A DNA stretch of 37,941 nt, taken from Dehalococcoidia bacterium. GTDB taxonomy: Bacteria; Chloroflexota; Dehalococcoidia; Tepidiformales; Tepidiformaceae. The translations under genes were made by a program, and so were the position numbers. The stretch lies in assembly GCA_034428315.1 (NCBI GenBank), contig DAOUID010000314.1, positions 1 through 37,941 on the forward strand, read 5' to 3'. Every line of letters starts with the position of its first letter. The first letter of the stretch is position 1. Below, one piece after another: positions 18,734-36,548 of the stretch. Under the pieces are notes generated by a model. That model made no database searches, was not told where the DNA came from, and was given only the letters and a program-made list of their open reading frames with translations.

Positions 18734-19108
18734 GAGTGGCTGGCCACAGGCTGCTGTGCTGCGAACGTTCGAACTGGCGATTGGCCTGTAGGGAATCAAC
18801 CCCAGCTACTATGCGAGAGGGCCGAGAGGGAAACCTGACCGACGGGCAGTTAGTGTCGATTGCGGAACCAGAGCCGAGTTATCGGTCTTCCAATCCGCTC
18901 CAAACGCTGCGGTATTCGTGGGGAGTGAGTTTGCCCTCTCCTCGCGTCACCGCACACCGCACGAGTCGAGGCGGGCCGGGATGACAGTGACACTGCGGTG
19001 AGCAGGCCTCTGCGTCTCCACGCCTACCTTCGCAGCCAGAGTGATGCATTGCTATAGTCCTGAGTGAACCTTAGGCCGCAAGCCGTTGGCGGGTGATCGG
19101 AGCCGACG

Positions 19109-20737
19109 ATGGACGAGCAGCGCTCGGTGGAATCCTCGGACTTCACTCTCGAGGTCGAGAACTTCGGCCCGATAGTGAATGCCAGCGTCGAGTTGCGCCC
19201 GCTCACCGTGTTCGCTGGACCCAGCAACACAGGGAAGTCTTACTTGGCGATCCTCGCCTATGCGCTCCACAGGTGCTTCGGCCCACAGAGGTTTCCGCGC
19301 TACGCCGGGTACCGCGAATACTCCCTGAGGCCACGGCCAGCGGGCCGAACCCGGCTTGCCAGTTTGGCATCAAGTGGCTTGCGGGAGTGGCTATCCGAAA
19401 CCCAAGAGTGGCTGTTTGACACGCCGGAGGGCAAATTGCCTCCACCCCTGCCCCAAGCTGTGGTCGAGCAACTGCGGCCCGCCTTGGAAGCAGCAGGCGA
19501 TCTAGATCGCTACGTGGAATCGGAGATGACGCGGTGCTTTGGCATCGAGCATCACAAGGAGCTAATTCGGCGACCAGGAAGCCACCAAGGCTCCAGACTT
19601 GCTTTGAATATTCCGAGGCATTCGGGGGAGCATCCGAAGGAAATCGTTGGGGATGGCGTACACATGGCACGCTATCAGTTCGACTTCACTCGAAGTCACA
19701 CAAAGTCAGACTCCGGGAAGATCTCGATAGGGCAGCCGGTCCACTTTGGCTCAGAATACTTGGAAGACCTTCGTGAGAGCATACTCCGTAGCACGGACCT
19801 CCGACCAACAGGAAACTGGGATGAAGTCCCTGATAGGGAAGTGGAGTACATTGCAAGGCAAATCGTCGATGCAATTCTTCTGTCGTCATTCCATCCGCTC
19901 AATGCCAATGCTTTCTATCTTCCGGCTAGTCGTACTGGAGTGATGCATAGCCACCAAACTGTCGTTAGCGCGCTGATCCAGAGCGCGACTGCTGCAGGCC
20001 GGCGGCCTACGGCTAGAGTTCCTGTGTTATCAGGAGTACTGGCCGACTTCTTGGATGACTTAATTGCGCTGCCGAACCGCCCATTCCAAGCATCCGCTGC
20101 TGGTCCTCGTAGGCGGCGGCGGAATCCTCAAGCTCGGAGAGAGTTCGATGAACTAGCTGGCCTCTTGGAGGAGAGGCTGCTGAAGGGGAAGGTCGACGTC
20201 GAGAGGGGAGAGACGAACTACCCGACTTTCTCCTACAGGCCACGGGGCTGGAAGCAGGGTCTCCCACTCATGCGGACATCGTCAATGGTGTCAGAACTAG
20301 CTCCCGTTGTGCTCTACCTCCGATACCTGGTACAGCCGGGGGATCTCTTCATCATTGAAGAGCCAGAGTCGCACTTGCATCCAGAGATGCAGTCGGCATT
20401 CGCTCAGGAACTGGCGAGGCTAGTCCGATCCGGAGTTCGCGTTCTGGTGACCACCCACAGCGAGTGGCTCCTTGAACAAATTGGAAATCTGGTTAGGCTC
20501 TCGGAATTGCCAGCAAGAGAGCGCAGAGGGTTAGCGGGAGCAGATGTCGCGCTGAGGCCTGAGGAGGTCGGCGCCTGGCTATTCACGCCAAAGCTGCGAC
20601 CACGGGGTTCGACGGTGGAAGAGATTGAGCTTGAGCAAGAAACGGGCCTCTTCCCGACTGGCTACGAAGAAGTAAGTGCAGCTCTTTATAACGAAAGCGC
20701 GGAGATATTCAACCGTATGCAGGACCCCGCCAGGTGA
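19109..20737 (+). CDS. ABC/SMC-like ATPase of the AAA_15/AAA_21 type
   Basis: 542 aa. Walker A GPSNTGKS (19217-19240). Q-loop-like YLPASRTG. Signature-like TSSMVSELAPVVLYL. Walker B/D-loop LFIIEEPESHLHP (20345-20377). H-loop VTTHS. About 330 aa are inserted between Walker A and the signature. GGAG lies 7 nt before the ATG. Confidence 0.85.
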   Translation: MDEQRSVESSDFTLEVENFGPIVNASVELRPLTVFAGPSNTGKSYLAILAYALHRCFGPQRFPRYAGYREYSLRPRPAGRTRLASLASSGLREWLSETQEWLFDTPEGKLPPPLPQAVVEQLRPALEAAGDLDRYVESEMTRCFGIEHHKELIRRPGSHQGSRLALNIPRHSGEHPKEIVGDGVHMARYQFDFTRSHTKSDSGKISIGQPVHFGSEYLEDLRESILRSTDLRPTGNWDEVPDREVEYIARQIVDAILLSSFHPLNANAFYLPASRTGVMHSHQTVVSALIQSATAAGRRPTARVPVLSGVLADFLDDLIALPNRPFQASAAGPRRRRRNPQARREFDELAGLLEERLLKGKVDVERGETNYPTFSYRPRGWKQGLPLMRTSSMVSELAPVVLYLRYLVQPGDLFIIEEPESHLHPEMQSAFAQELARLVRSGVRVLVTTHSEWLLEQIGNLVRLSELPARERRGLAGADVALRPEEVGAWLFTPKLRPRGSTVEEIELEQETGLFPTGYEEVSAALYNESAEIFNRMQDPAR

Positions 20738-21198
20738 GTGGACTTGTCGCGAGAGTTAGGACCGATGTTCACGACACTTGCATCAAGTCCCGTTGCAGGA
20801 AAGAGGGCTGTACGGCGTCAATGGAAGGATTGCCTTCCCCCCGTATATTAGTGGACCTCGACTGCGACGATCTTCGCCTTCCCGAGGGCCGTCAGCGATG
20901 TGATTACGTGTACTTCGATGGGGACAGGGCGTCGTCAAGGGTCGTACTCATCGAGCTCAAGAAGGGGGCAGTTAAAGGCAGCGAGGTCCTCGGTCAGCTT
21001 CAGGAAGGAGCTAACATCGCCGAAAAGTGGATCCCGCCGGGAACTGCGTTCAGACTCCATCCGGTGGTGGTGCACGGGAAGGGGGTCCACAAACAAGAGA
21101 TGAAACTCCTGCGCAACCGCAGAATCCGATTGCGTGATCGGACGGCACAGGCGTTATTGATGCGCTGTGGTGGATCCCTGAAGAGCGTGCTCAAGTAG
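20734..21198 (+). CDS. Small PD-(D/E)xK-fold protein (putative nuclease)
   Basis: 154 aa. GTGA overlap with the ATPase stop. RCDYVYFDGD...RVVLIELKKG (D57, E74-x-K76; 20902-20961) fits the beta-beta core of restriction-endonuclease-like folds. The motif-level call is mine alone. Confidence 0.5.
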   Translation: MSGLVARVRTDVHDTCIKSRCRKEGCTASMEGLPSPRILVDLDCDDLRLPEGRQRCDYVYFDGDRASSRVVLIELKKGAVKGSEVLGQLQEGANIAEKWIPPGTAFRLHPVVVHGKGVHKQEMKLLRNRRIRLRDRTAQALLMRCGGSLKSVLK

Positions 21199-21203
21199 GT
21201 TGC

Positions 21204-22421
21204 ATGTCCGCTGTGGGCAGTGATAGTAGGGAGTTCTCGCAAGACCTTCGAATTCGGGTCGACTCCGTTCTTGAGGCGGCGCGAGATGTCTCTGGGGTTA
21301 CTGGCTTGACCCATGGGTTCTACCGATACCCCGCCCGCTTCTCTCCACTCTTCGCGCGGGCTGCCATTGATGCCTTCACTGAACCTGGTGACCTTGTGCT
21401 CGATCCGTTCATGGGTGGTGGGACGACTGTCGTGGAGGCACGGACACGCGGCCGCCGCGCCTTCGGGTCGGACACAAGTGCACTCGCGGTATTCATAGCC
21501 CGCACCAAAACGACTGCGCTCACGGACCGAGAGCTCGCGGAAGTTGCTCGGTGGGCTGAGTACCAGGCTGCTCGAAGGAGAGCTTTCAGGAAGGCTGAAG
21601 TCGCCAACGACAATGGCGCTGTCTACCACTTGCGGAATTTTAACAGCCCTCTCACCTGGCGCCTGCGGGACTTTCTGCGGGGTGCCCTCCATCACCTTGA
21701 CGCTCTCGCGACTCCGCGCTCCAGGCGATTCGCGCGCGCTGTCTTGTTGCGGACAGCTCAGTGGGCTGTGGACACGCGCCCTAAGCCCAGAGGTCTTCCC
21801 GAAGTACGGCAGCGCCTCGTCCATGACGTGGAGGAGATGTCTCTTGGGCTGCGGGCGTTCCGGAGTGCGAGGAGCCACGCCGACAGGGCTGCTCGAGTCA
21901 CTCGCCGGCGGCAGGTCGTGCAACAGCGGTCCGCGGAGGCACTACGTGACGCACACTTGCTGACGCAGTTGGGACCTCCGCGCCTCGTCTTGACCTCCCC
22001 TCCATACCCAGGCGTGCATGTGCTATACCACCGATGGCAGCTAGCTGGGGGGAAGGAGACCCCCGCCCCCTTCTGGATTGCGGGCGAAAGAGATGGCGCG
22101 GCCGCGTCCCACTACACCCTCGCCGACCGACACGACCTGGAGGCCTACTTCGAGCGACATGAAGCTGCATTTGCTGCCGTAGCGGAAAGGTGCGACTCAC
22201 GATCCGTGATTGTGCAACTCGTCGCGTTCGCAGACCCCGCGACGCAGCTTCCTCGGTACATGGCGAGCATGGAGCGAGCCGGCTTCCGGGAGTTAGCCCC
22301 TAGCATCCCCCTCAAGGATCGTTGGCGCGATGTCCCGAACCGACGGTGGTACTCGGCGCAGCGAGGAAGGACGCCGGCCAGCAAAGAGCTCGTCCTCTTT
22401 CACGTACCTGTCTCCCGCTGA
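21204..22421 (+). CDS. DNA (N4-cytosine or N6-adenine) methyltransferase, motif I before motif IV
   Basis: 405 aa, starting 5 nt after the upstream stop. YPARFSPLFARAAIDAFTEPGDLVLDPFMGGGTT (SAM-binding FxGxG block, about 21390-21428). About 190 aa later, LVLTSPPYPG (catalytic SPPY, 21996-22007). Confidence 0.8.
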   Translation: MSAVGSDSREFSQDLRIRVDSVLEAARDVSGVTGLTHGFYRYPARFSPLFARAAIDAFTEPGDLVLDPFMGGGTTVVEARTRGRRAFGSDTSALAVFIARTKTTALTDRELAEVARWAEYQAARRRAFRKAEVANDNGAVYHLRNFNSPLTWRLRDFLRGALHHLDALATPRSRRFARAVLLRTAQWAVDTRPKPRGLPEVRQRLVHDVEEMSLGLRAFRSARSHADRAARVTRRRQVVQQRSAEALRDAHLLTQLGPPRLVLTSPPYPGVHVLYHRWQLAGGKETPAPFWIAGERDGAAASHYTLADRHDLEAYFERHEAAFAAVAERCDSRSVIVQLVAFADPATQLPRYMASMERAGFRELAPSIPLKDRWRDVPNRRWYSAQRGRTPASKELVLFHVPVSR

Positions 22422-22459
22422 AACCCATGGGACCGACCCTCCCAGCTTGGCCCTCGGTC

Positions 22460-24877
22460 TCAAGCGCCAGTGATTTGGTCGATGTCCAGGTCGCCGAGCT
22501 CGTTGATGAGGGGAAGGAGCACAGGGCCGATCGCATCAGATCCTGCGGCGATCCTCTCCCTCTCGTCCATGCCCTCGGCAACTCTATAGGTCCCCCCTTC
22601 TGGCTCGCGCAGCAGTCCCAGCCCCACTAGTACGAGCCCGTACTTCCACTGTGCGTCTAGCAGATCGTTCTTCTTGGGCTTCGACCTGCGTTCAGCTCGG
22701 AGGTACTCGTTGTCCATGTTGACCTGGAAGAGGTATTGCACGGCCTGACTGGTCTTGTCCTTGCCGAGGTTCAGGATTCTGAGGGCGGACCACTTGTCCA
22801 TCCCGGCGTCGTCCCAACCGTTTTCGCAGATCTCTTCGATCTTCGGGAATTCAATGCCTGAGGATCTGAGGCTCAGCCGAGTGCGGCGTTTGTCCCGGTC
22901 CCCGCCAGATCGGGTTTTCTGCTCTGGCCCGACGGTGATGCGAGCCCGATTGACGAACGGAGTGACCAGTGTCTCGTCGTTAACCCTGACCTCGACGAGG
23001 AGCTGGTCATCCTCCACAACGCTTGGGGGAAGGTCGAGGCTTAAGTGAGCGACGCCTGCGGACAGGCGCATCACGTAGGTGTACTCGTTCGGTGCAATCA
23101 AGATCCCTTCTCGGTGGAGGCTCACGTCAAGGGAACCGGGGAGGATTGCACGATCAAAGTAGTCGTTCTCGACGTCCGTTGCGAAGTCGATCCGCGTGCG
23201 CTGCCCAATGTGACAGTTCCGCTTGAGTTCCTCGCCGTACGGGAGGTCGAGGAAGCGAAATTGGGTGGGGTGAGGCCGACCTTCGAACTTGTCGCCCTCG
23301 GTGGAAGGCTGGACGGTAGCTTGGTTCGGCAACCGCCTCCCCCGGAGGAAAAGCGCGTTGAGGACACTGGAGTGCCGCATCACCTGCTGGAGCACCTCCT
23401 CAAGGGGGCGATCGTCCGTTAGCCGTTCCTCAAGGCGCCTGTCAGCCCGTTGACGGTTCAACTCACGAAGTCGCTGATCGTCCGCAACTAGCTGCTTTAT
23501 CTTCTCCTCCACTTCCTTGCGGAACTGCGACTCCGACAGTCGGTCGCGACTGTTCTGAGTCAGATCCTCCAGCGATGGGACCGAGAGCTCGGTGCAGTCA
23601 ACCACCACCGCAAGGGCGTTCTCGAGCACACCGAGCCCGACGGCCTTGGTGCCGAAGAGCCGCTTGTGCAGCATCCCATGCGACTGCCCGTTCACGGCGA
23701 AGACCACCCCGTGGTCTCCGCGGTAGCGGCTGGCGTTGTCTGCCTTGAGGCAGAAAATCCGGTAGGTGAATTGCTCCCCACGTACCGTCATTGTGCCCGT
23801 CGCGTCGTACTCTGGGTCCGCTTCCTTCAGCCGGCGATCGAGGCCGGTGAGGTTCCACTCGGTGCTACGTGGCTCTCCTTCCCACCTGCATTCGTGCAAA
23901 CGGATGGGAAGGGGGAGCTGAGGCATCCATACGTCTAGCTCCTGGCGCAGCCCACCGCTCTGCCCGAACTGTGTGATGGCCTCTGTCTGGTATTGGTAGA
24001 GCTTGATGAGTGTCCCGGACTCCACTTCGACCTGGTACGGACTGTTGTACAGAGGGCCGATGGGGAGAGTTGCTGCTGGGAACCGCAGGATCTCTCCACC
24101 TCCGGGGTGTTGGTCAGCGCCGATGGGTGCGAGATACCTGTACGCCGTCATGCTATCCCCCTCCTGGTAATCGCGGCGCACAATCGTGAATCCCCAGTCG
24201 GACGACTCGCCGTCTTCCTCAGCAAGAGCAGGAGCCCGGCGACTCAGGACGAGTTGGAAGTGGCTGTCCCCGCAGAATCGAAGGGCCGCCGTTCCTCCCA
24301 TCGCGAATTTGCCCTGAGTGAAGGCGATGTCCTTCTTGAGACTATTGCCGAGCGAGAGAAGCGTTGCAGGTTGCTTCTCCGGTGCCTGCCCCTCGCCCCG
24401 ATCAAGGATCGTCACGGACGGATAGTTCCGCTGGCGGTCAACCTGCTTGCGCCGGTCGCCAGTGAGCGCAATCGAAGTCGTGGCTCGGGCAACCTTGCGG
24501 ATCACCGCAGGATCCCACGCTTCGAGGGATCCCGAGTACGACGCATCAGGGTTGGCGTCGAAGAACCGTGCAACCGCGCGGCGTACGCTCGTTGGCGCGT
24601 GTGGCCCTCTCGGGTCGATTCCCTCTTCGCGACACCGCCTCATCAGCAACGCGTCAATGGCGTTGGTGATCTTCTCTGCGAGGGCGGCCTCTGGGACGAC
24701 CGCTTGAGCGCCAATCGTCGCGTAGTTGTCCTCGCGGTCACCCAGCAACCGCCACGAAGGTTCGTTATCCCAGAGTCCCGCTTCCGTGAGAGCCTGGACT
24801 ACCTCCTCCTCACGGTCGGCCCCAAGGAGCGTGAACAGCAGCCTGCGGACGGCGGCGTCATCGTTGACGTTGAGCAT
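22460..24877 (-). CDS. GHKL (Bergerat-fold, MORC/HATPase_c_3-like) ATPase with a long C-terminal extension
   Basis: 805 aa. N-box EKITNAIDA (24650-24676). G1 ILDRGEG (24389-24403). G2 QGKFAMGGTAAL (24293-24313). Charged helical segment RKEVEEKIKQLVADDQRLRELNRQRADRRLEERL. GAGG lies 8 nt before the ATG, which is 19 nt after the upstream stop. Confidence 0.65.
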   Translation of the reverse strand: MLNVNDDAAVRRLLFTLLGADREEEVVQALTEAGLWDNEPSWRLLGDREDNYATIGAQAVVPEAALAEKITNAIDALLMRRCREEGIDPRGPHAPTSVRRAVARFFDANPDASYSGSLEAWDPAVIRKVARATTSIALTGDRRKQVDRQRNYPSVTILDRGEGQAPEKQPATLLSLGNSLKKDIAFTQGKFAMGGTAALRFCGDSHFQLVLSRRAPALAEEDGESSDWGFTIVRRDYQEGDSMTAYRYLAPIGADQHPGGGEILRFPAATLPIGPLYNSPYQVEVESGTLIKLYQYQTEAITQFGQSGGLRQELDVWMPQLPLPIRLHECRWEGEPRSTEWNLTGLDRRLKEADPEYDATGTMTVRGEQFTYRIFCLKADNASRYRGDHGVVFAVNGQSHGMLHKRLFGTKAVGLGVLENALAVVVDCTELSVPSLEDLTQNSRDRLSESQFRKEVEEKIKQLVADDQRLRELNRQRADRRLEERLTDDRPLEEVLQQVMRHSSVLNALFLRGRRLPNQATVQPSTEGDKFEGRPHPTQFRFLDLPYGEELKRNCHIGQRTRIDFATDVENDYFDRAILPGSLDVSLHREGILIAPNEYTYVMRLSAGVAHLSLDLPPSVVEDDQLLVEVRVNDETLVTPFVNRARITVGPEQKTRSGGDRDKRRTRLSLRSSGIEFPKIEEICENGWDDAGMDKWSALRILNLGKDKTSQAVQYLFQVNMDNEYLRAERRSKPKKNDLLDAQWKYGLVLVGLGLLREPEGGTYRVAEGMDERERIAAGSDAIGPVLLPLINELGDLDIDQITGA

Positions 24878-24896
24878 GGTGGTGACCTCGTCTTCC

Positions 24897-26144
24897 TTAG
24901 TTGCGCTTTCCGCGCTCGAGCTTGAGCGCCTCGCTCAGCAGGTAGTTGATCGCGGAGACGACCTCCTGCCGACGAGAGATCGGGGTTCGTGAGCCTTCAG
25001 GGACCAGGCCGGCCTTCCTCCAGAGCGCTCCACGGCCGAGGCTGAAGTCGGCGTTCTTCAACAGCTCTACGAGCACTTCCTCGTCCTTTTCTCGTCTCCC
25101 GACCCACTCGTGCCACACAGCAGCTATCACCCTCAGGATGGTGTTGTTGAACGCCAACGTGTTGCCACGTTCCCTCGATGGCTGCGCTTCTCCCACGGCA
25201 AGCCGCTGGTATTCGGTGCGCGCCTTTGTCAGGAACGTGAAGAACCGTTCTGCTGGCTTGGTAATCAGGTCAGAGTCGGTGTCGACTTCAAGCGCTCGCT
25301 GCTTGCTGATACGTCCGTAGTACCCCACCTGTAGGGTTCGAAGCAGAGTCGCGAGCTGATTGTAAGTGATGAGCTTGTCGCTGGTGCCGGACACCGTACT
25401 CCGCTCCATTTCGACGTTCCCGTCCAGTAGGCCGCAGCTGTTCATCACGGCTTCAGCGGCTCGGTTGAAGGGGTCCCGGGCATCGAATCGTGACTTCGTC
25501 AGAGCATCGATAGGGCGAGCCTTCGCGGCGTCCGAGAACATCTGCCGCAGTGACTGGATGTCTACCTCGCCGAATAGGAGGACGGGGATCGCCTCGGACT
25601 CAAGCTGGTCGAGACGTTGCTTTGTCGCCTCGAGTTCCTTGTTCAGCTCCCGGTTGGCGGACTTGCCCCGCTTTTTCGCCTTTGCTCCGTTGATCTTCTC
25701 GTCCAGTTCACGGATTTGAGTACGTCGCTCGTCCACCAAGTCATAGATCGCGCGTCGTCGATGTTGTCCGTCGAACAACTTCAACTGTCCGACAGCCGAG
25801 AGTGGGATGCGGATCACACCGAAGCGTCCTTCTGTGTTGGCGAAGGCTTCGAATTCGATGAGGTCTGGGTCGAGGGCGACCATGATCGCTCCAGATACCC
25901 ACGCAGGCTGGTCCCACAGATAGCCTCGGATCGCGTCGGCGTGAGGCTGATGCAACCTACGATTCGCGTCGCTCACGATGTCATCGTCAACCCGCCGCGG
26001 CAGCAGCCCGTTCAAGTCCTTGAGGGTTAGCGCGAAGCTGTACACGTCCCGTCCGCCCTGGACGAGCCGCATCGCTTGAGCGCTTAGGTCCCCGAACTGA
26101 GGTGATGATTCCGCGGCGACTGCCACGGCACTTGCGTTTACCAT
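24897..26144 (-). CDS. DGQHR-domain protein (DndB/DpdB family, ParB/Srx fold)
   Basis: 415 aa. NRRLHQPHADAIRGYL followed by LKLFDGQHRRRAI (DGQHR at 25758-25772). GGAGG lies 9 nt upstream of the ATG. Confidence 0.8.
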   Translation of the reverse strand: MVNASAVAVAAESSPQFGDLSAQAMRLVQGGRDVYSFALTLKDLNGLLPRRVDDDIVSDANRRLHQPHADAIRGYLWDQPAWVSGAIMVALDPDLIEFEAFANTEGRFGVIRIPLSAVGQLKLFDGQHRRRAIYDLVDERRTQIRELDEKINGAKAKKRGKSANRELNKELEATKQRLDQLESEAIPVLLFGEVDIQSLRQMFSDAAKARPIDALTKSRFDARDPFNRAAEAVMNSCGLLDGNVEMERSTVSGTSDKLITYNQLATLLRTLQVGYYGRISKQRALEVDTDSDLITKPAERFFTFLTKARTEYQRLAVGEAQPSRERGNTLAFNNTILRVIAAVWHEWVGRREKDEEVLVELLKNADFSLGRGALWRKAGLVPEGSRTPISRRQEVVSAINYLLSEALKLERGKRN

Positions 26145-26184
26145 GCCCTACTCAGCCTCCTAGCCAAGGGTGAGAATACAATGT

Positions 26185-26213
26185 AAATTACCCGCTTAAA
26201 TAGCAGTTTGCAA
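26185..26213 (-). promoter_or_regulatory. Possible sigma70-type promoter for the DGQHR-GHKL operon
   Basis: On the minus strand: TTGCAA (26213-26208), a 17-nt spacer, then TAATTT (26190-26185). It sits in the only AT-rich patch upstream of the operon. Consensus match only. Confidence 0.25.
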
Positions 26214-26616: not shown

Positions 26617-26832
26617 CTAGGGTGCTACGCCCACTTCTTGTTCGGCGAGTTGATGCTCGACCCATGTCGACAGTCGCCGCCACTCAGCGATGCTCATCCT
26701 CATGGAGCGCTGATAGCCGGCGCCGGGGTAGGGCGTATCGCTGCTGCTCACGAGATAGATCAGAATCTCTTGACGATCGACCTTCACGCGGAGATTCCAA
26801 GCTGGAATCGCCTTCGCCGTCAGTTCGGCCAT
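26617..26832 (-). CDS. Hypothetical small protein (71 aa)
   Basis: MAELTAKAIPAWNLRVKVDRQEILIYLVSSSDTPYPGAGYQRSMRMSIAEWRRLSTWVEHQLAEQE looks protein-like (strand-strand-helix). The overlapping plus-frame translation is R/P/A-rich junk. No family recognised. Confidence 0.35.
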   Translation of the reverse strand: MAELTAKAIPAWNLRVKVDRQEILIYLVSSSDTPYPGAGYQRSMRMSIAEWRRLSTWVEHQLAEQEVGVAP

Positions 26833-27159
26833 GCTCACCCCCGCCGGAGTTCGCGTCGGCCTCAGGCCGTTGCACGTCCGGTTCAAGTCGTTCTTCGGGT
26901 GGCATCCTATCACCCCGTCGCGGCTCCACCGGCTCTCAGCAATCCCGCCCGGGACCCCTCCCCGTCGAGTCGTGCCCCTCTGGCATGCGGACGCCGATGC
27001 GGGGCTCGTAGGTGTAGTGGCGTGGTTGGCGTCCTCGCCGAGCTTGCGGCGGAGCCTGCTCCCACGATGGTCCGCATGGGGCGCACGTCACCGCCGCCCT
27101 TCTCCCCCCAGACCGGTAGCGTCTGGCCCAGCGGGATTGCTCTAGACTCCTCTCCAGCG

Positions 27160-28257
27160 ATGAGCCTTACCAGCCACCTCAATGACAGAGAGTCGCCGGT
27201 CCGGGGGTTCCTTCATGCCATGTTCCCCAACACGAGGGGGCCACTGGCGGAATGCCGCCGCGCAATGGCCCTGCCGGCAACGATTGACCGCTTGCCGCAG
27301 ACCGCGCCCGCGACCGCCTACGGTCAGCTCGGCATGGCGATCGATTACCGGATCCGGTACCACTTCGCCGAGCTGCTGTCGCGAGACAGGTGGGTCGAGG
27401 ATGAATGGGACGGTACAGCGCCTGCTGAGATGTGGTTGGAGCACATTGAGGATGGCGAGCCCATCGTGTGGCGTGTGCGAGGTGGTCGCGCCGAGCGCAT
27501 CGAGCAGCATGCTGAACTGATTGCCTCGCGCGCGGCAGCGTTCGTGATCCGACGGGACGGCCCGCCGGACGATCTCTTCTGGCACTCACGAGTCCTGGGC
27601 GACCTGGGTGTGCCCGGGGAGCGGAAGCTAGCCCGTGGCTGTGTCGCAGGCTTCTTCGACGCGCTTGATAGCGCCGTCCGCGAGCTCTACCCCCACCAGC
27701 GCAAGCTGACGGCCGAGGAGGAGCGTACGTTCGCCGGCTTCTGCCTTATCCTGGCGGCCTTCGAGTCCGTGTATCGAGCGGGGGCACGTGCCTGGCCACC
27801 ACCGTACCTAGTGGGGCAGCGTCCCCCGGACACCGCGGACGAGCTGCTTGCCCTCGTGCCGGACGCATGGGTGGAGGATGCTGCTGCCCTGGGGAGCGCG
27901 TTCGCCGCACGGTACCCCGAGTGGCGGGGCGCAGAAGCCCAGCTCAACCCGAACTTCGAGGGGAGCAGGGATGTCGGCGGCGCCGATGCGGACTTCATCG
28001 CCGATGCCTGCCTGTGGGACATCAAGACGACCAAGAAGGCAAGCGCGCAAGGTCAGTGGCTCCGCCAGCTGCTCGGCTATGTCCTCCTCGACTACGAGGA
28101 CGAGTACCGGCTCGAGCGCGTGGGTTTGATCCTGCCGAGGCAAGATACGCGGGTGAGCTGGCCGGTCAGCGATCTCATCGCAGCAATGTCGGACCGCACG
28201 GACTTGGAACTGCGGGACCTGCGCGACCGCTTCCGTGCTGTCTGCCAGGGTAGCTGA
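27160..28257 (+). CDS. RecB/Cas4-like PD-(D/E)xK family protein
   Basis: 365 aa from ATG 27160; the track ORF start at 26638 is over-extended. GGADADFIADACLWDIKTTKK...WLRQLLGYVLLDY gives D-x-D ... D-I-K ... QxxxY (27985-28080). Confidence 0.55.
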   Translation: MSLTSHLNDRESPVRGFLHAMFPNTRGPLAECRRAMALPATIDRLPQTAPATAYGQLGMAIDYRIRYHFAELLSRDRWVEDEWDGTAPAEMWLEHIEDGEPIVWRVRGGRAERIEQHAELIASRAAAFVIRRDGPPDDLFWHSRVLGDLGVPGERKLARGCVAGFFDALDSAVRELYPHQRKLTAEEERTFAGFCLILAAFESVYRAGARAWPPPYLVGQRPPDTADELLALVPDAWVEDAAALGSAFAARYPEWRGAEAQLNPNFEGSRDVGGADADFIADACLWDIKTTKKASAQGQWLRQLLGYVLLDYEDEYRLERVGLILPRQDTRVSWPVSDLIAAMSDRTDLELRDLRDRFRAVCQGS

Positions 28258-28482: not shown

Positions 28483-28866
28483 ATGATGCCGCCCTGCCCA
28501 TCGTGGCAGCCAGAGTTGTTGACAACGAGGTCGTTCAGCGTGCAGGCCCGGGGGGATGCTGTCCCCGATCTCGCGCGCGTATATCTCGCCGTAGTGCCCA
28601 CGGCGGCGATGGAGCGCTGGATGAACTGGGGGGCCACCCCCCACGAACTGCGGGAGGGCGGCCACCTCGCGTTCGAGGGCGCGCTCGCCCCGGGTAAGCA
28701 ATTGCGCCCACTGCTCCGTGGCGTCTTCGTCCGCCAGGGCGTCGCCCGCTGCGAGTTCCTCGACGAAGAGCGTGATCCCGAGCACACAGGGAACGGAATG
28801 CGCGGCCGGCGGCGGCACGGGCGGGCGCCTGCTAACGTGTATCCCCCAGGGTTACCTGAGGAATAG
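28483..28866 (+). CDS. Hypothetical protein upstream of the HNH gene
   Basis: Two antisense ORFs share third codon positions here. Over 75 codons (28560-28784) I counted GC1 about 81% and GC2 about 47% for the plus frame. This is the normal coding pattern for a high-GC genome, and it is inverted for the minus ORF 28351..28818. Start codon uncertain. Confidence 0.35.
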   Translation: MMPPCPSWQPELLTTRSFSVQARGDAVPDLARVYLAVVPTAAMERWMNWGATPHELREGGHLAFEGALAPGKQLRPLLRGVFVRQGVARCEFLDEERDPEHTGNGMRGRRRHGRAPANVYPPGLPEE

Positions 28867-28885
28867 CCTGCAGGAGGTGGACGAA

Positions 28886-29446
28886 GTGAGCGACCTGCCT
28901 TCACTCGTGCGTGCGACCACGGCAGAGGCGTACGCGCTGGCCGACAAGACGGGCCGTCTGCCTGAGCGGATCGAGGTCGAAGCCAGCTTCGACGTGGACG
29001 CTGTGGGGGGCCTCGCTCTCAACCAATCCCGTCGGTCTCCCGGTGCGGTGAAGATGAAGATGGAGCTGGCTCCCCAGGCGGCGCCTCCAGGACTGCGCCT
29101 GATAGCAGACCACGCCGCGAGAGAGTCCGTGAGGGGCCGGAAGAAGCGCACGCGCAAGCGGATCAACCACACGATCCTCTACCGAAGACAGGGCGGATAC
29201 TGCGCCGGCTGCCGCCACTACTTTCAGCCGAGGAATCTGACCATCGACCACGTGTTACCACGAGTCGGCGGCGGAAGCGACGAGATTGCCAACCTGCAGC
29301 TTCTCTGCGAGGCCTGCAACCAGCTCAAGGGAAACGGAACGCAGAAGGCGTTGTTGGCCGAATTACGAGCGCGGGGCTTCGTCAATGCCGGGCCGAATAC
29401 ACCGCCGCGTGAGGAGGGCCCGGGCGCTAGGAAGTCGGCGAGGTGA
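28886..29446 (+). CDS. HNH endonuclease with an N-terminal beta-rich module
   Basis: GTG 28886 lies 8 nt after AGGAGG. HNH core CAGCRHYF...LTIDHVLPRVGGGSDEIANLQLLCEACNQLKGN (29201-29329). N-terminal segment ERIEVEASFDVDAVGGLALNQSRRSPGAVKMKMEL. Confidence 0.85.
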   Translation: MSDLPSLVRATTAEAYALADKTGRLPERIEVEASFDVDAVGGLALNQSRRSPGAVKMKMELAPQAAPPGLRLIADHAARESVRGRKKRTRKRINHTILYRRQGGYCAGCRHYFQPRNLTIDHVLPRVGGGSDEIANLQLLCEACNQLKGNGTQKALLAELRARGFVNAGPNTPPREEGPGARKSAR

Positions 29447-30598: not shown

Positions 30599-32170
30599 GT
30601 GCCCGCCAGCACCAAGGACGCCAACAGCGCCACCACCGGCTACGAGGCCGAGCTGTGGGGGATGGCCGACGCCCTCCGCGGGAGCATGGACGCCGCCGAG
30701 TACAAGCACGTCGTCCTCGGGCTCATCTTTCTCAAGTACATCTCCGATGCCTTCGAGGAGGCTCACGCCAAGCTGGAGTCCGAGCGCGACCAGGGTGCCG
30801 ACCCTGAGGACCCCGACGAGTACCGCGCCCAGAGCATCTTCTGGGTGCCGCCTGAGGCGCGCTGGGCGCACCTGAAGGCGCAGGCCAAGCAACCGACCAT
30901 CGGGCAGCTGGTCGACGATGCCATGGCCGCCATCGAGCGGGACAACGAGGGGCTCAAGGACGTGCTCCCCAAGGACTACGCCCGCCCCGCCCTCGACAAG
31001 ACGCGCCTTGGCCAACTCATCGACCTCGTCAGCAACATCCGGGTCGGGGACGAAGAGTCCCGCTCGCGGGACGTGCTCGGCAGGGTCTACGAGTACTTCC
31101 TGTCGCGGTTCGCCAGCGCCGAGGGGAAGCGGGGCGGGGAGTTCTACACGCCTCGCTCCGTCGTCAGGCTGCTCGTCGAGATGCTCGAGCCGTACAACGG
31201 TCGTGTGTACGACCCCTGCTGCGGCTCCGCCGGCATGTTCGTGCAGTCGGTCGAGTTCATCCGGGCGCATGCCAGCGGGAACGGCAACGGCGGCAAGGCC
31301 CGCGCCGACATCTCCATCTACGGCCAGGAGTCCAACTACACGACGTGGCGCCTCGCCCGCATGAATCTCGCCATCCGCGGCATCGAGGGCCAGATTGCCC
31401 ACGGCGACACCTTCCACAACGATCGCCACCCCGACCTGAAGGCCGACTTCATCCTCGCCAATCCCCACTTCAACGACTCCGAGTGGCAGGGGGAGCTCCT
31501 CACCGACGACCAGCGCTGGGCCTACGGCGTCCCGCCCGCGGGGAACGCCAACTTCGCCTGGGTGCAGCACATGGCGCACCACCTCGCGCCGAACGGTGTG
31601 GCCGGCTTCGTGCTGGCCAACGGCTCGATGTCGTCGAACCAGTCGGGCGAGGGCGAGATCCGCAAGAACCTGATCGAGGCTGGCCTCGTCGACTGCATGG
31701 TGGCACTGCCCGGCCAGCTCTTCTACTCGACCCAGATACCCGCCTGCCTCTGGTTCCTCGCCCGAAACCGCCACGGCGGGAGCCACGACCGAAGCGACAA
31801 GGTGCTCTTCATCGACGCCCGCAAGGTGGGCCACATGGTCGACCGCACGCACCGCGAGCTTAGCGACGACGACATTCAGCGTGTCGCCGACACCTACCAC
31901 GCCTGGCGAGGCGAGGAGGACGTGGGCGAGTACGCCGACGTCCCCGGCTTCTGCAAGAGCGCCACGCTTGAGGAGGTGCGCAAGCACGGCCACGTGCTTA
32001 CCCCCGGACGCTACGTCGGCACCGAGCCGCAGGCAGACGACGGCGAGCCCTTCGCGGAGAAGATGGCCCGCCTCAGCACGCAGTGGCGCGAGCAGCAGGC
32101 CGAGGCGGCCAAGCTCGATGAAGCGATCGAGGAGAACCTGCGCAGCCTGGGGTTCCCTGAAACGGGGTGA
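30599..32170 (+). CDS. hsdM: Type I restriction-modification system methyltransferase subunit
   Basis: HsdM_N pattern [52 protein letters not shown]. Motif [13 protein letters not shown]. Motif IV NPHFN. GTG start. Confidence 0.93.
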
Positions 32171-32561: not shown

Positions 32562-33785
32562 ATGGAGAGAGATATGGTCAACGTGAGGCCCATCCGAACC
32601 GAAGCCGACTACGAAGCCGCTCTGGCGCGCGTTGCGGAGCTCATGGACGCCCGCGAAGGGACGCCCGAGGGGGAGGAACTTGACGTGCTCGCCGACCTCG
32701 TCGAGGTCTATGAGGACAAGCACTTCCCCATGGGCTACCCCGACCCCGTCGCCGCGATCGAATTCTGCATGGACCAGCAGGACCTGGCCCCGCGCGACCT
32801 CGTTCCCTACATCGGGAGCCGCGCTCGGGTGTCCGAGGTGCTCTCGGGGAAGCGAGCGATCACGATGTCCATGGCGCGAGCACTGCACGAGCACCTCGGC
32901 ATCCCCGCCGAGGTGCTCCTGCAGAAGCCTGCCCCCGCCGGCGATGCCGCCCTCGACACCCTCGACGCCGAGCGCTTCCCCCTCAAGGAGATGGCGAAGC
33001 GCGCCTGGATACCCGATGTTCCGAACCTCAAGGAGCGAGCAAGCGAACTGGTGGCCGGGCTCCTCGGTCGCGCCGGCGGCCCCGATGCCCTCACCGCAGT
33101 CCCGATGTACCGGAAGAACGACCACCAGCGCATCAACGCCAAGACCGATCCCCACGCCCTGCGAGCCTGGTGCTGGCAGGTGCTCGCTTCTGCGCACGAC
33201 GACCCTCCGAGCGCCGAGTACGAGACCGGAACTGTCACCCTTGAGTTCTTGCGGGCAGTCGCGCAGTTGAGCGTGTCGGAGGACGGACCGGTACGGGCGA
33301 AGGACTATCTCGCCGACCACGGGATCGCCCTCCGCGTGGAGCGCCACCTCCCGCGGACACACCTCGACGGCGCCGCCTTCCGGCTGCCGGGGAAGCCGCC
33401 CGTCATCGGCCTCACGCTGCGCTACGACCGCATCGACAACTTCTGGTTCTGCCTGCTGCACGAGCTGGCCCACATCGGCCGCCACTTTGACGGCCGCCCC
33501 GAGGGCTTTGTCGACGACTTCGACCTCCCGGGGGAGAGCGCACGCGAGACGGAGGCCGACGAGTGGGCGCAGGAAGCGCTCATCCCGAGCGACGAGTGGC
33601 AACGGAGCGCGATCTGGCTGGAGCCAGCTCCCCTGAATGTGTACTACCTGGCGAACTCCCTGGACATCCATCCCGCCATCGTCGCCGGCAGGATCCGCCG
33701 CGAGACCGACGACTATCGGCGCCTCTCGCAACTGGTCGGGACGGGCCAGGTCCGCCAGCAGTTCGAGGAGAAAGAGGCCGAGTGA
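32562..33785 (+). CDS. HigA-like HTH antitoxin fused to an ImmA/IrrE (COG2856) zinc metallopeptidase domain
   Basis: The N-terminus is PIRTEADYEAALARVAELMDA...DPVAAIEFCMDQQDLAPRDLVPYIGSRARVSEVLSGKRAITMSMARALHEHLGIP (HigA/XRE HTH). The C-terminus has FWFCLLHELAHI (HEXXH at 33459-33473) and EADEWAQEALIP. Confidence 0.85.
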   Translation: MERDMVNVRPIRTEADYEAALARVAELMDAREGTPEGEELDVLADLVEVYEDKHFPMGYPDPVAAIEFCMDQQDLAPRDLVPYIGSRARVSEVLSGKRAITMSMARALHEHLGIPAEVLLQKPAPAGDAALDTLDAERFPLKEMAKRAWIPDVPNLKERASELVAGLLGRAGGPDALTAVPMYRKNDHQRINAKTDPHALRAWCWQVLASAHDDPPSAEYETGTVTLEFLRAVAQLSVSEDGPVRAKDYLADHGIALRVERHLPRTHLDGAAFRLPGKPPVIGLTLRYDRIDNFWFCLLHELAHIGRHFDGRPEGFVDDFDLPGESARETEADEWAQEALIPSDEWQRSAIWLEPAPLNVYYLANSLDIHPAIVAGRIRRETDDYRRLSQLVGTGQVRQQFEEKEAE

Positions 33786-34426
33786 CTGAATTCGTACCCG
33801 TAGGCGACCTTCACGTCGTCCTTCAAACGGGACCGCAGACTGTGGACTGGGTGATCGTGGCAGCGACTGTGGTGATCGCTGTATCCGCCCTCGCCTCCCT
33901 CTGGTTGAACTGGCGGCTGACCCAGGACAATCGTGCGCTCCGGAAAGCTGGCACGGAGCCGGTGGTAGTGGCCTACCTGGAGATCAAGAGACTGTCCGCC
34001 GCCTACTTGATCTATCTCGCGCTGGAGAATGTTGGGCAAGGGCCTGCGCTCGATGTGGAGTACTTCGTGGATGCCGACCCTCAAGACTTCGCTGCCCACG
34101 GAGTCCTGAAGGTGCCTGTGAGGACTCAACGCAAGGTTGCGAGTCTGCTTCCACAAGGTGGACGGATCGAGCGCTTCATGGGAGGCAGCACGACCCTGCT
34201 TGGTGACAGCGAAGAGGCTGGGCTTCAGCCCTTCCGCGTTAGGGTCTCCTACACAAACCTGCGGGGCGTTGCTGCTGAGTCCAAAGAGTACCCCCAAGAC
34301 ATCTCCGAGGTGAGAGAAGTCGTGGAGGTTGTCCCCTCCGACGAACGGATTGCGAAGGCCCTCGAGAAAATCGAGAAGCACCTCTCTAGAGACGCCGCTG
34401 ACGAAGCGGGGGAAGAAGTGTCATGA
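33782..34426 (+). CDS. Hypothetical single-pass membrane protein
   Basis: GTG 33782 gives a GTGA overlap with the upstream stop. One TM helix, WVIVAATVVIAVSALASLWLNW, then a roughly 170-aa soluble part with an acidic tail. ATGA overlap with the hsdS start. No family recognised. Confidence 0.5.
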   Translation: MTEFVPVGDLHVVLQTGPQTVDWVIVAATVVIAVSALASLWLNWRLTQDNRALRKAGTEPVVVAYLEIKRLSAAYLIYLALENVGQGPALDVEYFVDADPQDFAAHGVLKVPVRTQRKVASLLPQGGRIERFMGGSTTLLGDSEEAGLQPFRVRVSYTNLRGVAAESKEYPQDISEVREVVEVVPSDERIAKALEKIEKHLSRDAADEAGEEVS

Positions 34427-35658
34427 CGCCAGCCGAAGGATGGCGAAATGCCTCGTGGGGCGATCTGGCAACACTGGAGTACGGCAAGTCGCTGCGCGGG
34501 TATCAGGAGTCGGACGGCCCCTATCGCGTCTACGGCACGAACGGGCCGATAGGGTGGCACTCGGAGGCGCTGTGCCCCTTCCCTAGTGTGGTCATCGGAA
34601 GGAAGGGAGCCTATCGGGGCGTGCACTACTCGGCCGGACCCTTTCATGTCATCGATACGGCCTTCTACCTCAGGCCCAAGGTCGAGCTAGACACCAAGTG
34701 GGCCTACTACCAACTCCTCACCCAGAACATCAACGGGATGGACAGCGGCTCCGCGATACCCTCAACCAGCCGTGAGGACTTCTACAGCCTGCCGGTCGAT
34801 GTACCGCCCCTGGACGAGCAGCGCGCCATCGCCCACGTCCTCGGGACGCTCGACGACAAGATCGAGCTGAACCGCCGCATGAACAAGACCCTCGAGGCGA
34901 TGGCGCGGGCCCTGTTCCGGTCGTGGTTCGTCGACTTCGATCCCGTCCGCGCGAAGATGGAGGGACGCTGGCGTTCGGGCGAGTCCCTCCCCGGCCTCCC
35001 CGCCCACCTCCACCCCCTCTTCCCTGACCGCCTCGTCCCCTCCGAGCTCGGCGACATCCCCGAGGGCTGGGAGGTTCTTCGCGCCGGCGAGGCTGTGACA
35101 GTGGGCGGGGGCAGCACACCCAGCACGAAAGAGCCGTCGTATTGGGATGGCGAGCATTGCTTTGCGACGCCCAAGGACCTGTCCCTCCTGCAAGCGCCCG
35201 TCCTTGCCTCAACCGCGCGCAAGCTGACTGATGCAGGCGTTGCGCGGATTCGGTCGGGGTTGCTGCCGCCCGGGACGGTGCTGCTCTCATCCCGGGCGCC
35301 GATTGGTTACCTGGCTATCACCGAAACTCCCGTCGCTATCAATCAAGGCATTGTCGCCATGGTCTGCGATGGACCGATAGGTGCCCAGTACGCGCTGAAC
35401 TGGACGCGGGTCAACATGGACGCCATCGAAGCGAGAGCGAGTGGCACCACCTTCGCTGAGATCAGCAAATCCTCGTTCCGCGACCTGCCCTTCCTGACTC
35501 CATCTGGACCCGTTCATGCTGCGTACGAAGCGACAACAGGGCCGCTCTACAGACGGGTCTCAGGGGTGGCTCGGCAATCCCGAGCCTTGGCCGCGCAGCG
35601 TGATACGCTGCTGCCACAGCTGGTGTCTGGCGAGTGGCGAGTTGTCACGAGAGCGTAA
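34423..35658 (+). CDS. hsdS: Type I restriction-modification system specificity subunit
   Basis: Two target-recognition halves are separated by the conserved PPLDEQRAIAHVLGTLDDKIELNRRMNKTLEAMARALFRSWFVDFDPV. C-terminal conserved helix ALAAQRDTLLPQLVSGE. Confidence 0.9.
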   Translation: MTPAEGWRNASWGDLATLEYGKSLRGYQESDGPYRVYGTNGPIGWHSEALCPFPSVVIGRKGAYRGVHYSAGPFHVIDTAFYLRPKVELDTKWAYYQLLTQNINGMDSGSAIPSTSREDFYSLPVDVPPLDEQRAIAHVLGTLDDKIELNRRMNKTLEAMARALFRSWFVDFDPVRAKMEGRWRSGESLPGLPAHLHPLFPDRLVPSELGDIPEGWEVLRAGEAVTVGGGSTPSTKEPSYWDGEHCFATPKDLSLLQAPVLASTARKLTDAGVARIRSGLLPPGTVLLSSRAPIGYLAITETPVAINQGIVAMVCDGPIGAQYALNWTRVNMDAIEARASGTTFAEISKSSFRDLPFLTPSGPVHAAYEATTGPLYRRVSGVARQSRALAAQRDTLLPQLVSGEWRVVTRA

Positions 35659-35675
35659 GCCCAAAGGATCTGATA

Positions 35676-36548
35676 ATGGCACTTATCCCTCCCTTCTTCT
35701 TGAACACGACAGTTGCGCTCGGCGTCCCCTTACAGGACGGAGAAGTGCAATTCAGCGCCACGGGTTTTCTGTACGGTCACCCTACAGGCCAAGTTGATGA
35801 TCAAGGCGATAATTTCTATTGGCTGTTCCTTGTAACTAATCGCCACGTTTTTGAACAGGCAATACAAAGAAGTCAAACAATGATGGCTCGATTCAATAGG
35901 CCCTTCGGGTCCGAGCCCAACATGTACCGGCTAGACTTGAGTCAAGACGACGGAAGCCCCTCGTGGTTTGCTCATCCCCTTGCGGAGAATGATGTTGCAG
36001 TAATGTACATTAACCACGAGGCACTAAAGAGTGATGGTATTGAGTACGCATTTTTCGAAGAAGGAAGGCACACGTGTTCTTTGGAGGATGCCCGTACTTC
36101 AGGCGTCAGCGAAGGGGATGGAGTCTTCACCCTAGGGTTTCCCCTCGGAAATACCGGGGAAGAGAGGAACTACGCAATAGTGAGACAGGGCATCATAGCC
36201 AGGATCAGAAACTGGCTCAGCGGAACCACTCATATGTTCCTTATCGATGCTTCTGTTTTCCCCGGAAACAGCGGTGGTCCAGTACTGCTCAAGCCGGAAG
36301 CAATTGCTATTGAGGGGACACAAACTAATGCCCACTGCAGCCTAATTGGGATGGTGTCCTCTTATTTGACATATACAGAAGTCGCGGTAAGTGAGCAGAC
36401 GGGTCGTCCGCGGATGATATTCGAGGAGAACTCTGGTTTGGCGAGCGTGGTCCCTCAGAACGTCATTCAGCAAACGGTTTCCCTTGCTGTGGACAGACTT
36501 GGCCTGCGTAGGCAGGTTGCCCCTGCTGAGCCTAGGAGTGTGGAGTAG
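35676..36548 (+). CDS. Trypsin-like (S1/Trypsin_2) serine protease
   Basis: 290 aa from ATG 35676. Catalytic triad context: LVTNRHV (His57, 35844), ENDVAVM (Asp106, 35991), FPGNSGGPVLL (Ser199, 36270). No signal peptide is evident. GC is visibly lower than in the neighbours. Confidence 0.8.
   Translation: MALIPPFFLNTTVALGVPLQDGEVQFSATGFLYGHPTGQVDDQGDNFYWLFLVTNRHVFEQAIQRSQTMMARFNRPFGSEPNMYRLDLSQDDGSPSWFAHPLAENDVAVMYINHEALKSDGIEYAFFEEGRHTCSLEDARTSGVSEGDGVFTLGFPLGNTGEERNYAIVRQGIIARIRNWLSGTTHMFLIDASVFPGNSGGPVLLKPEAIAIEGTQTNAHCSLIGMVSSYLTYTEVAVSEQTGRPRMIFEENSGLASVVPQNVIQQTVSLAVDRLGLRRQVAPAEPRSVE

Follow-up and report, generated by a model that had tools for sequence, protein, structure and literature searches.

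A stretch of 37,941 nucleotides from a Dehalococcoidia bacterium (contig DAOUID010000314.1; we call this whole stretch the window) carries a gene for a protein of the DndB/DGQHR family, followed on the same strand by a gene for an 805-amino-acid (aa) protein with the motifs of a GHKL (Bergerat-fold) ATPase. To what kind of system do these two genes belong? The original prediction, made from the sequence of the window, took them for a self-contained two-gene defence system. We find that the ATPase gene has another and far more constant partner, a DNA methyltransferase gene that lies 38 bp away and had been left out of the system. The locus is in our judgement probably, though well short of certainly, an unnamed three-gene, two-transcript cassette that resembles a restriction-modification system, with the methyltransferase and the GHKL ATPase as its core and DndB co-transcribed in a slot upstream of the ATPase. 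The functional unit should be redrawn as methyltransferase, GHKL-Ig ATPase and variable upstream gene.

Relatives of the 805-aa protein were sought by scanning one genome per species, which gave 429 genomes. The best 80 loci of these were kept and, with two loci added through contig look-ups, form a set of 82 from many bacterial phyla and one haloarchaeon. Residue conservation and a Mantel test were calculated on 78 homologues or complete methyltransferase-ATPase pairs, and the 2,353 open reading frames (ORFs) around 81 loci were clustered into families. Protein families were taken from Pfam and NCBIfam 2026, and defence-system models from PADLOC-DB v2.0.0, which covers Dnd, Dpd, Ssp, BREX, MADS and the PDC/HEC candidates among others. 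The 805-aa protein was modelled with AlphaFold2 on the family alignment (mean predicted local distance difference test, pLDDT, 82) and its fold was compared by Foldseek.

The methyltransferase as partner of the ATPase gene

A homologue of the window's methyltransferase, 36-77% identical and full length, is present at 80 of the 82 GHKL loci. At 71 of them it lies directly downstream of the GHKL gene and convergent to it, with a median gap of 54 bp (distances measured from tblastn extents), and at nine further loci it is found within ~3 kb. One of the two loci without it is a truncated contig. DndB, by comparison, adjoins the GHKL gene at six of the 82 loci. The terms 'two-gene' and 'self-contained' are therefore not supported for this family, whose near-universal partner is the gene that was set aside. 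L003, from a Dehalococcoidia metagenome-assembled genome (MAG), is the only full-length DndB and GHKL locus without a methyltransferase homologue within 10 kb; IS21-type genes lie nearby, and loss or displacement of the methyltransferase is possible. Among the flanking ORFs of the 81 loci, neither a helicase nor a nuclease gene was found to be conserved around the pair. Judged as a restriction-modification system, the locus offers a methyltransferase with intact motifs tightly linked to a second component; a cognate endonuclease was not found.

The methyltransferase scores 48.4 bits with Pfam N6_N4_Mtase (cut-off 26.7) and matches PADLOC MTase_II at 1e-16. Its motif I (DPFMGGGT, aa 67-74) and motif IV (TSPPYPG, aa 264-270) are at least 95% conserved and make catalytic competence likely. 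These motifs are ~200 aa apart, and the least-conserved blocks of the protein (aa 121-140 and aa 221-260) fall between them. The variable stretch thus looks like a target-recognition domain (TRD), and it lies where a target-recognition region would be expected. By the usual rule of thumb an SPPY motif indicates N4-cytosine methylation, and the product is probably N4-methylcytosine.

Pairwise identities of methyltransferases and ATPases are correlated over the 78 pairs (Mantel r = 0.52), a value that 0 of 999 permutations reached. Exchange is also evident. Within the DndB clade, the window and L004 have a common type of methyltransferase (75% identical). L005 and L006 have a second type, ~40% identical to that of the window, alongside ATPases with 76-79% identity to the window's ATPase. 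L006 and L027, both from Dehalococcoidia MAGs, have methyltransferases that are 91% identical and ATPases that are 37% identical, a mismatch indicating that two cassette subfamilies have recently exchanged the methyltransferase gene. Overall, of the 64 pairs whose ATPases exceed 65% identity, 17 have methyltransferases below 50%. These swaps favour recognition via the methyltransferase, as in Type III or BREX systems, or a generic reading of the mark, since they would be poorly tolerated by an enzyme with a matched sequence specificity of its own.

The GHKL ATPase

The 805-aa protein belongs to a well-conserved family of full-length homologues. The Bergerat triad picked out in the original prediction (EKITNAIDA, ILDRGEG and QGKFAMGG) is indeed present, and E68/K69/N72/D75 of motif I, D159/G161/E162/G163/Q164 of motif II and G189/K190/M193/G194/G195 of motif III are at least 95% conserved in the 78 homologues. 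The same is true of W228/T231/R234 of motif IV, including the threonine T231. In the transducer-like domain the RLHECR segment (R326, E329, C330, R331), C428, E437 and S443-R446 are invariant. The full-length protein matches nothing in Pfam, NCBIfam or PADLOC (E up to 0.01), and sequence searches of PDB chains, with the protein itself or with a 24-sequence profile, gave nothing useful. When only the N-terminal 250 aa were searched against Pfam to E 10, HATPase_c_3 scored 13.4 bits (E = 0.081), below its cut-off of 25. The assignment of the protein as a GHKL ATPase is thus supported by its motifs and its predicted fold, and by no curated sequence model; the profile that might have backed the original claim stays below threshold.

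The AlphaFold2 model matched TRAP1/Hsp90 (1.8e-9), the ATPase of DNA-bound MORC2 (2.2e-9), the ATPase region of GyrB (1.4e-7) and MutL (7e-6). With MORC2, GyrB and MutL the aligned region is 420-480 columns long and so covers both the ATP-binding domain and the transducer domain. Together, the conserved ATP-binding motifs and the predicted GHKL-transducer fold make a catalytically competent ATPase likely. The charged helical segment mentioned in the original prediction is also seen in the model. The remaining significant fold matches are Ig-like sandwiches at ~aa 530-720 (RPTP Ig1-2, titin; E ~2e-5). The C-terminal helical domain had no fold match and is a candidate dimerisation element.

Does the 805-aa protein itself cut DNA? 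It would then be the endonuclease of a conventional restriction-modification system, with a cryptic active site and an ATPase that licenses cleavage. Candidate residues for such a site are available, since H328/E329/C330/R331, C428/E437, S443-R446 and D568/Y573/R576 are invariant and lie outside the ATP pocket. The tail-to-tail arrangement of 'R' and 'M' genes with a small upstream gene is typical of Type II systems, and fusions of GHKL modules to nucleases are known from MutL and paraMORC3 (PMC2292703). Nevertheless, we regard a cryptic endonuclease as unlikely. None of the 54 Foldseek matches with E < 1e-3 is a nuclease fold and no nuclease profile was detected in the protein, which agrees with the original failure to recognise a nuclease motif; furthermore, methyltransferases pass freely from one distant ATPase lineage to another, which fits poorly with an enzyme of its own, matched sequence specificity.

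We prefer a scheme for the cassette in which the methyltransferase would mark host DNA. The ATPase, likely a constitutive dimer through its C-terminus, would dimerise and, once ATP is bound, close around unmarked DNA or along it, in the manner of other GHKL-transducer proteins. It would recognise its sites through the methyltransferase and not by itself, as in Type III or BREX systems. The outcome could be a block of replication or transcription without cutting, or cleavage by way of a nuclease site or partner that we did not recognise.

The DndB-like protein and the variable upstream slot

The 415-aa protein is a DndB-family protein, as was originally proposed. It passes both domain models (Pfam DndB, PF14072, 156.2 bits with a cut-off of 29.1; TIGR03187, DGQHR, 90.4 with a cut-off of 58.85) and carries LFDGQHRR at aa 123-130, in which DGQHR is D125-R129. 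It falls far below the equivalog cut-offs for DndB (TIGR03233, 60 bits vs 328) and DpdB (NF041060, 26.8 vs 300), which argues that it is an orthologue of neither DndB proper nor DpdB. The ParB/Srx fold of DndB is a published classification, and a DndB-like protein has been reported to bind ATP and GTP (bioRxiv 10.1101/2025.10.10.680097). In our model (pLDDT 79.7) a helical hairpin of ~55 aa is inserted right after DGQHR (aa 127-183). The PADLOC DndB and TIGR03233 profiles leave the hairpin region unaligned, their best stretches covering ~aa 176-409.

The DndB-like gene ends in TAA and is followed, after 19 nt, by the ATG of the ATPase gene, exactly as first described. This short junction, with GAGG ahead of the ATG, indicates that the two genes are co-transcribed. 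A candidate promoter of consensus TTGACA-17 nt-TATAYT is kept ahead of the operon in the window and in L003-L006 (there at ~8640-8700), although our consensus promoter scanner made no call at 26185..26213. The promoter spacer contains a partial palindrome, AAGCGCTT, which is perfect in L004, matches at 7/8 positions in L003 and L005 and at 6/8 in the window, and is a candidate operator. In Salmonella enterica DndB is a dimeric autoregulator that represses its own operon by binding palindromes within its own promoter (PMC4507180). By analogy we suggest that the window's protein is most likely a DNA-binding autoregulator of the operon, modulated by nucleoside triphosphates (NTPs) and akin to a controller (C) protein. 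This role is favoured by the S. enterica precedent and the reported nucleotide binding, by the position of the gene at the head of the operon behind a conserved promoter with a partial palindrome, and by the other states of the slot, which may contain nothing or a protein with a classical DNA-binding fold. Alternatively, the protein could serve as a DNA-binding adaptor or loader for the clamp.

The position just upstream of the ATPase gene, on the same strand, is occupied by different genes in different loci; VapBC aside, most of the unrelated proteins that take the place of DndB are DNA-binding. A family of ~200-235 aa (U1) is found in 24 loci and a second of ~350-400 aa (U2) in 12; the consensus of U2 suggests a ribbon-helix-helix (RHH)-like N-terminus, and its C-terminus gives a weak, sub-threshold match to a PaaX-like winged helix-turn-helix (wHTH). 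VapBC takes the slot in eight loci, seven of them with an AbrB-type antitoxin. Two small families (four loci each), HARE-HTH (two) and HTH_17 (two) account for other occupants, and ~17 loci have no ORF of at least 100 aa there. The six loci with DndB are the window, its four closest loci (DndB 76-81% identical) and L008, whose DndB is of a different lineage (Pfam 330 bits) and represents a single independent occurrence. Profile-profile comparison shows U1, U2 and DndB to be mutually unrelated. The only PDB proteins matched by U1 and U2 were designed helical repeat proteins, which we dismissed as compositional. The VapB (AbrB-type) and VapC (PIN) genes lie ~15-120 bp upstream of the GHKL gene in L017, L049, L050, L055, L064, L072 and L073, and the VapBC-linked loci fall in one subclade; in L062 a PIN gene is present and no antitoxin was found.

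The class of slot gene tracks the GHKL phylogeny. Nearest neighbours agree in 45 of 78 cases vs 13.8 expected, and the maximum in 2,000 shuffles was 32. A given subclade therefore keeps its class of slot gene, and replacement occurs from one subclade to the next. Among the ATPases the DndB-linked ones form the branch that diverges most, at most 42% identical to any other, and DndB looks like a lineage-specific add-on that fills a variable slot.

This bears on the rival view that DndB and the GHKL protein form a two-gene defence system on their own, a ParB-like NTP-dependent loader or sensor working with a clamp, to which the methyltransferase is an unrelated neighbour. The 19-nt spacing with its ribosome-binding site speaks for such a pair, and so does its retention in the window's clade: ~20 relatives keep both genes (GHKL 72-91% and DndB 70-96% identical; the contigs of the two agree in length in 16 cases), and a DndB as distant as 59% identity still precedes the N-terminus of an ATPase homologue. 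To this extent the predicted co-conservation holds. The independent DndB upstream of the GHKL homologue in L008 is a second instance, and a DndB relative (42% identical) precedes PDC-M33, the A protein of which has GHKL-like motifs. Beyond the window's clade co-conservation breaks down, however. ATPase homologues at 53% identity keep the methyltransferase and have no DndB, with U2 or the methyltransferase upstream instead; most DndB relatives have other contexts; and the many loci with an empty slot, together with the imbalance between six DndB genes and 80 methyltransferases, leave the two-gene view with very little probability.

The other contexts of DndB are varied. Relatives ~40% identical are solitary, arranged in tandem (DndB-DndB), or fused to HEPN_Swt1 or Mrr_N; the tandem or fused genes are at L097 3492-5818 and L101 5813-8167 and in proteins P0172 and P0230. 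The relative that directly precedes PDC-M33 A/B/C was seen once, at L092 8001-12771. PDC-M33A has an N-box-like EFIQNSIDA and GSFGIGK, and no homology between it and the 805-aa family was detectable (hhalign probability 0.4%). A metagenome scan with the DndB profile gave only four loci, too few for statistics. These arrangements suggest that DndB-like proteins are a portable module on which several conflict-type systems draw.

Setting, paralogues and comparison with known systems

The coordinates of the locus are collected in Table 1. No terminator-like hairpin was found in the spacer between the methyltransferase and GHKL genes.

Table 1. Features of the methyltransferase-GHKL-DndB locus in the window.
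Feature	Position	Strand	Evidence or remark
DNA methyltransferase, 405 aa	21204..22421	+	Pfam N6_N4_Mtase, PADLOC MTase_II
Tail-to-tail spacer between methyltransferase and GHKL genes, 38 bp	22422..22459	.	
GHKL ATPase protein, 805 aa	22460..24877	-	
GHKL (Bergerat-fold) domain, ~aa 1-300	23978..24877	-	Motifs I-IV, Foldseek
Transducer-like (S5-like) domain, ~aa 301-450	23528..23977	-	Foldseek; boundary inferred from the secondary structure of the model
Charged helical (coiled-coil-like) segment, aa 451-509	23351..23527	-	Helices H451-465, H468-486, H489-502 in the model
Two Ig-like beta-sandwich domains, ~aa 530-720	22718..23290	-	Foldseek; all-beta in the model
C-terminal helical domain, aa 724-805, and stop codon	22460..22708	-	Helices H724-732, H734-755, H772-795
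DndB-GHKL junction, 19 nt	24878..24896	-	GAGG 8 nt before ATG
DndB/DGQHR-family protein, 415 aa	24897..26144	-	DGQHR motif 25758..25772
Candidate sigma-70-type promoter of the DndB-GHKL operon	26185..26213	-	TTGCAA, 17 nt, TAATTT

The first 18.8 kb of the window hold housekeeping genes (LigA, PBP2, RodA and others) with a GC content of ~70%. From 19 kb on it is lower, at 58-62%. GC content falls to 0.57-0.63 over 19000-26000, a region that spans the cassette and a neighbouring pair of genes, and this drop from ~0.70 fits horizontal acquisition. Neither a tRNA gene nor convincing flanking direct repeats were found at the borders of the island in the window. The neighbouring pair, at 19109-21198 (+), consists of a gene for a 542-aa AAA_15/AAA_21 ATPase (PADLOC PD-T4-4_A, 3e-35) and, overlapping it by 4 nt, a 154-aa ORF with no profile match; it looks like an OLD-ABC ATPase with a small nuclease, of the PD-T4-4/WonAB type (cf. 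PMC12137116). WonAB bears on this pair and not on the methyltransferase-GHKL-DndB locus.

On the other side of the cassette, and divergent from the DndB operon, lie a gene for a 539-aa protein with a C-terminal PD-(D/E)xK-like region (26638..28257 (+); PADLOC RTasPDDEXK, 2.7e-13) and, after it, one for a 242-aa HNH endonuclease (28718..29446 (+)). We considered each as the missing nuclease and rejected both, because the 82 loci contain no homologue of either (E up to 1e-5); the sole exception is a weak HNH match 4 kb off in L001 (L001 and L026 are one contig). They are probably separate genes of the island. Further along are Type I hsdM (30599-32170) and hsdS (34423-35658), with an IrrE/M78-peptidase-like gene between them (32562-33785), and a trypsin-like peptidase gene after hsdS (35634-36548). 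No hsdR was identified within the window. As first noted, dnd, dpd and ssp genes are likewise absent among the main ORFs of the window, including DndC/D/E-like, dptFGH and tgt/dpdA-like genes.

The description 'embedded in a defence island' is accurate for this window and does not extend to the family. At 35 loci the two ORFs next to the cassette on either side are mostly serine recombinases, IS21 or Mu-type transposases and integrases, and otherwise unrelated housekeeping genes. Four loci are on IMG/VR viral contigs, and two cassettes stand beside phage terminase genes (Nu1/GpA) in apparent prophages (the loci concerned are L001 14294-16833, L089 11659-13692 and L085-L088); among INPHARED phage genomes there was no tblastn match. 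Flanks rich in recombinases and transposases, together with the prophage sites, suggest that the cassette behaves as a mobile unit. Such flanks could also mean that the module does not serve immunity at all, and that it is an epigenetic or chromosome-organising module carried by mobile elements, which would for instance compact DNA or silence genes under the guidance of methylation, or else an addiction module that serves only to maintain itself. The predominance of recombinase and housekeeping neighbours over defence genes, the prophage cassettes beside terminase genes, VapBC at eight loci, and the fold match to DNA-bound MORC2, considering that eukaryotic MORCs compact DNA, are all in keeping with this idea. 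A role in defence fits better with the patchy, horizontally transferred distribution, with the partnership with methylation and Ssp phosphorothioation genes, and with the island in this window (PD-T4-4-like pair, Type I restriction-modification, HNH gene); we consider a purpose other than immunity improbable.

The Ssp partnership is seen in distant paralogues. On plasmids, paralogues of the GHKL protein (23-30% identical) adjoin modification genes: SspC-SspD with DUF262 and SIR2 in Hymenobacter, SspC-SspD in Ensifer, SspA-B-C-D in Devosia and a site-specific DNA methyltransferase in Halogeometricum. The paralogues matched no PADLOC model (two plasmid paralogues, E up to 0.01) and no NCBIfam model. 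Of the arguments from context that this family responds to the modification state of the DNA on which it acts, its association with two different chemistries of modification is the strongest. Since 84% of sspBCD clusters are reported to lack any known restriction partner (PMC8092258), it is possible, from gene neighbourhood, that the Ssp-linked paralogues are unrecognised Ssp restriction partners. The Ssp-linked loci (~30% identical) are L083 (NZ_CP110137), L084 (NZ_CP101520) and L102 (NZ_CP104964). On the two Rhizobiales plasmids among them a BbrUII-like/histidine-kinase fusion and an unknown protein of ~650 aa are also found near the paralogue. Two identifications of the paralogues were discarded. 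SspFGH was rejected, as SspF is described with a Walker A motif and SspH as FtsK-like (PMC8092258), and PADLOC gave no match. The HEF_HK 'paraMORC-like' kinases (PMC8011034) correspond to another protein, namely the 'sensor histidine kinase' encoded nearby on the Rhizobiales plasmids.

A broader reading of these data, which we put forward only tentatively and consider rather doubtful, is that the GHKL-Ig superfamily as a whole is a hitherto unrecognised class of nuclease-free readers of modification. They would be ATP-gated dimeric clamps that entrap or compact unmarked DNA and that have repeatedly been plugged into modification chemistries, N4/N6 methylation in the core family of 429 species and SspABCD phosphorothioation in the paralogues. 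As an equally tentative part of this reading, they would be a prokaryotic counterpart of MORC-type silencing, and the slot proteins (DndB, RHH-wHTH, HARE-HTH) would act as loaders or sensors. The paralogues would then be one missing restriction partner for the sspBCD clusters that lack one.

Several points weigh against the restriction-modification-like cassette that we prefer. We infer the defence role solely from gene context, and defence islands do not consistently flank the family. No nuclease was recognised, so that 'restriction' in the strict sense is only a possibility. The Mantel correlation partly reflects shared vertical descent, and the swapping of methyltransferases weakens strict co-evolution. 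The assignment of N4-methylcytosine follows a rule of thumb. For DndB as a regulator, the argument is one of analogy and of a palindrome that is weak in the window, and Foldseek with the DndB-like model gave no PDB match at E < 0.1, so that the ParB/Srx fold was not recovered. U1 and U2 (200-400 aa) are far larger than classical controller proteins. Their size and the clade-stable occupancy of the slot are no less compatible with a role as adaptor or sensor.

No named system fits the locus, a point on which the original prediction and our searches of PADLOC-DB, NCBIfam and the literature agree. In the literature on DndB-like proteins, bacterial MORC and GHKL-methyltransferase defence we found no description of this cassette, and public sources that name proteins of the GHKL family call them hypothetical. 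The general idea is known from 2008, when Iyer, Abhiman and Aravind predicted that ATPases with GHKL and S5 domains work with methylases in restriction-modification operons (PMC2292703); that paper names neither ParB nor Dnd. As far as we found, a system of this architecture has not been named or modelled in defence-finder libraries. The family is not rare: beyond the 429 species-level genomes, a full HMMER search of the wider superfamily gave 3,182 representatives (clusters at 50% identity), 1,188 of them with E up to 1e-30. Should the cassette confer immunity, it would add to the known systems a compact one of two genes, in which the methyltransferase can be swapped and so can a third gene. 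It would also be a tractable model for how a GHKL clamp reads DNA modification, for the roles of DndB-like proteins outside phosphorothioation clusters and for the partners of orphan sspBCD.

Comparison with known systems places the cassette between several of them. The DndB-like protein shares with DndB and DpdB the domain models and the first place in an operon, and the partial palindrome overlapping its promoter recalls DndB autoregulation (PMC4507180). It differs in its low equivalog scores, in the predicted helical insertion after DGQHR, in having a GHKL ATPase gene downstream and in a window without dndCDE, dptFGH or dpd genes. PDC-M33 is alike in the DndB relative directly upstream and unlike in its A protein, which is no detectable homologue of the 805-aa family. 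No PADLOC model, those of SspE/F/G/H included, is matched by the Ssp-linked paralogues, which lie outside the window's subfamily.

The layout recalls C-protein Type II systems, where a DNA-binding gene and then an 'R' gene share one transcript and the 'M' gene is convergent; the upstream gene is moreover dispensable in some lineages of the cassette. The upstream proteins here are far larger than C proteins and not of the Xre type, and their regulatory role is put forward by analogy. With Type III restriction-modification and BREX the cassette shares a methyltransferase and a large NTPase that would form a mobile self/non-self module, in which the methyltransferase can be exchanged. BREX resembles it too in that neither contains a recognisable nuclease. 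Unlike these systems, the cassette has no Res-type helicase-nuclease, PglZ, BrxC or BrxL, and its NTPase is of the GHKL type and not SF2 or AAA+.

The closest comparison is with the MORC and paraMORC families, of which paraMORC1-5 were compared with the 805-aa family by published description. These families are defined by sequences of the HATPase_c_3 type, a profile whose threshold the 805-aa protein does not reach, and by neighbouring helicase or nuclease genes. The C-terminus here consists of a coiled coil, two Ig-like domains and a helical tail, all as predicted by the model, and the 81 loci have no conserved superfamily II (SF-II) helicase, Vsr, HNH or restriction-fold partner. The partner methyltransferase is of the N6_N4 type with an SPPY motif, in contrast to the mostly C5-cytosine methylases of the published families (PMC2292703). 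On the other hand, the N-terminal GHKL domain with intact ATP motifs is likewise followed by a transducer domain, the spread over bacteria and archaea is likewise sporadic and consistent with horizontal transfer, and the linkage to a DNA methylase, at 80 of 82 loci here, is likewise in keeping with a predicted action on DNA that depends on its state of methylation.

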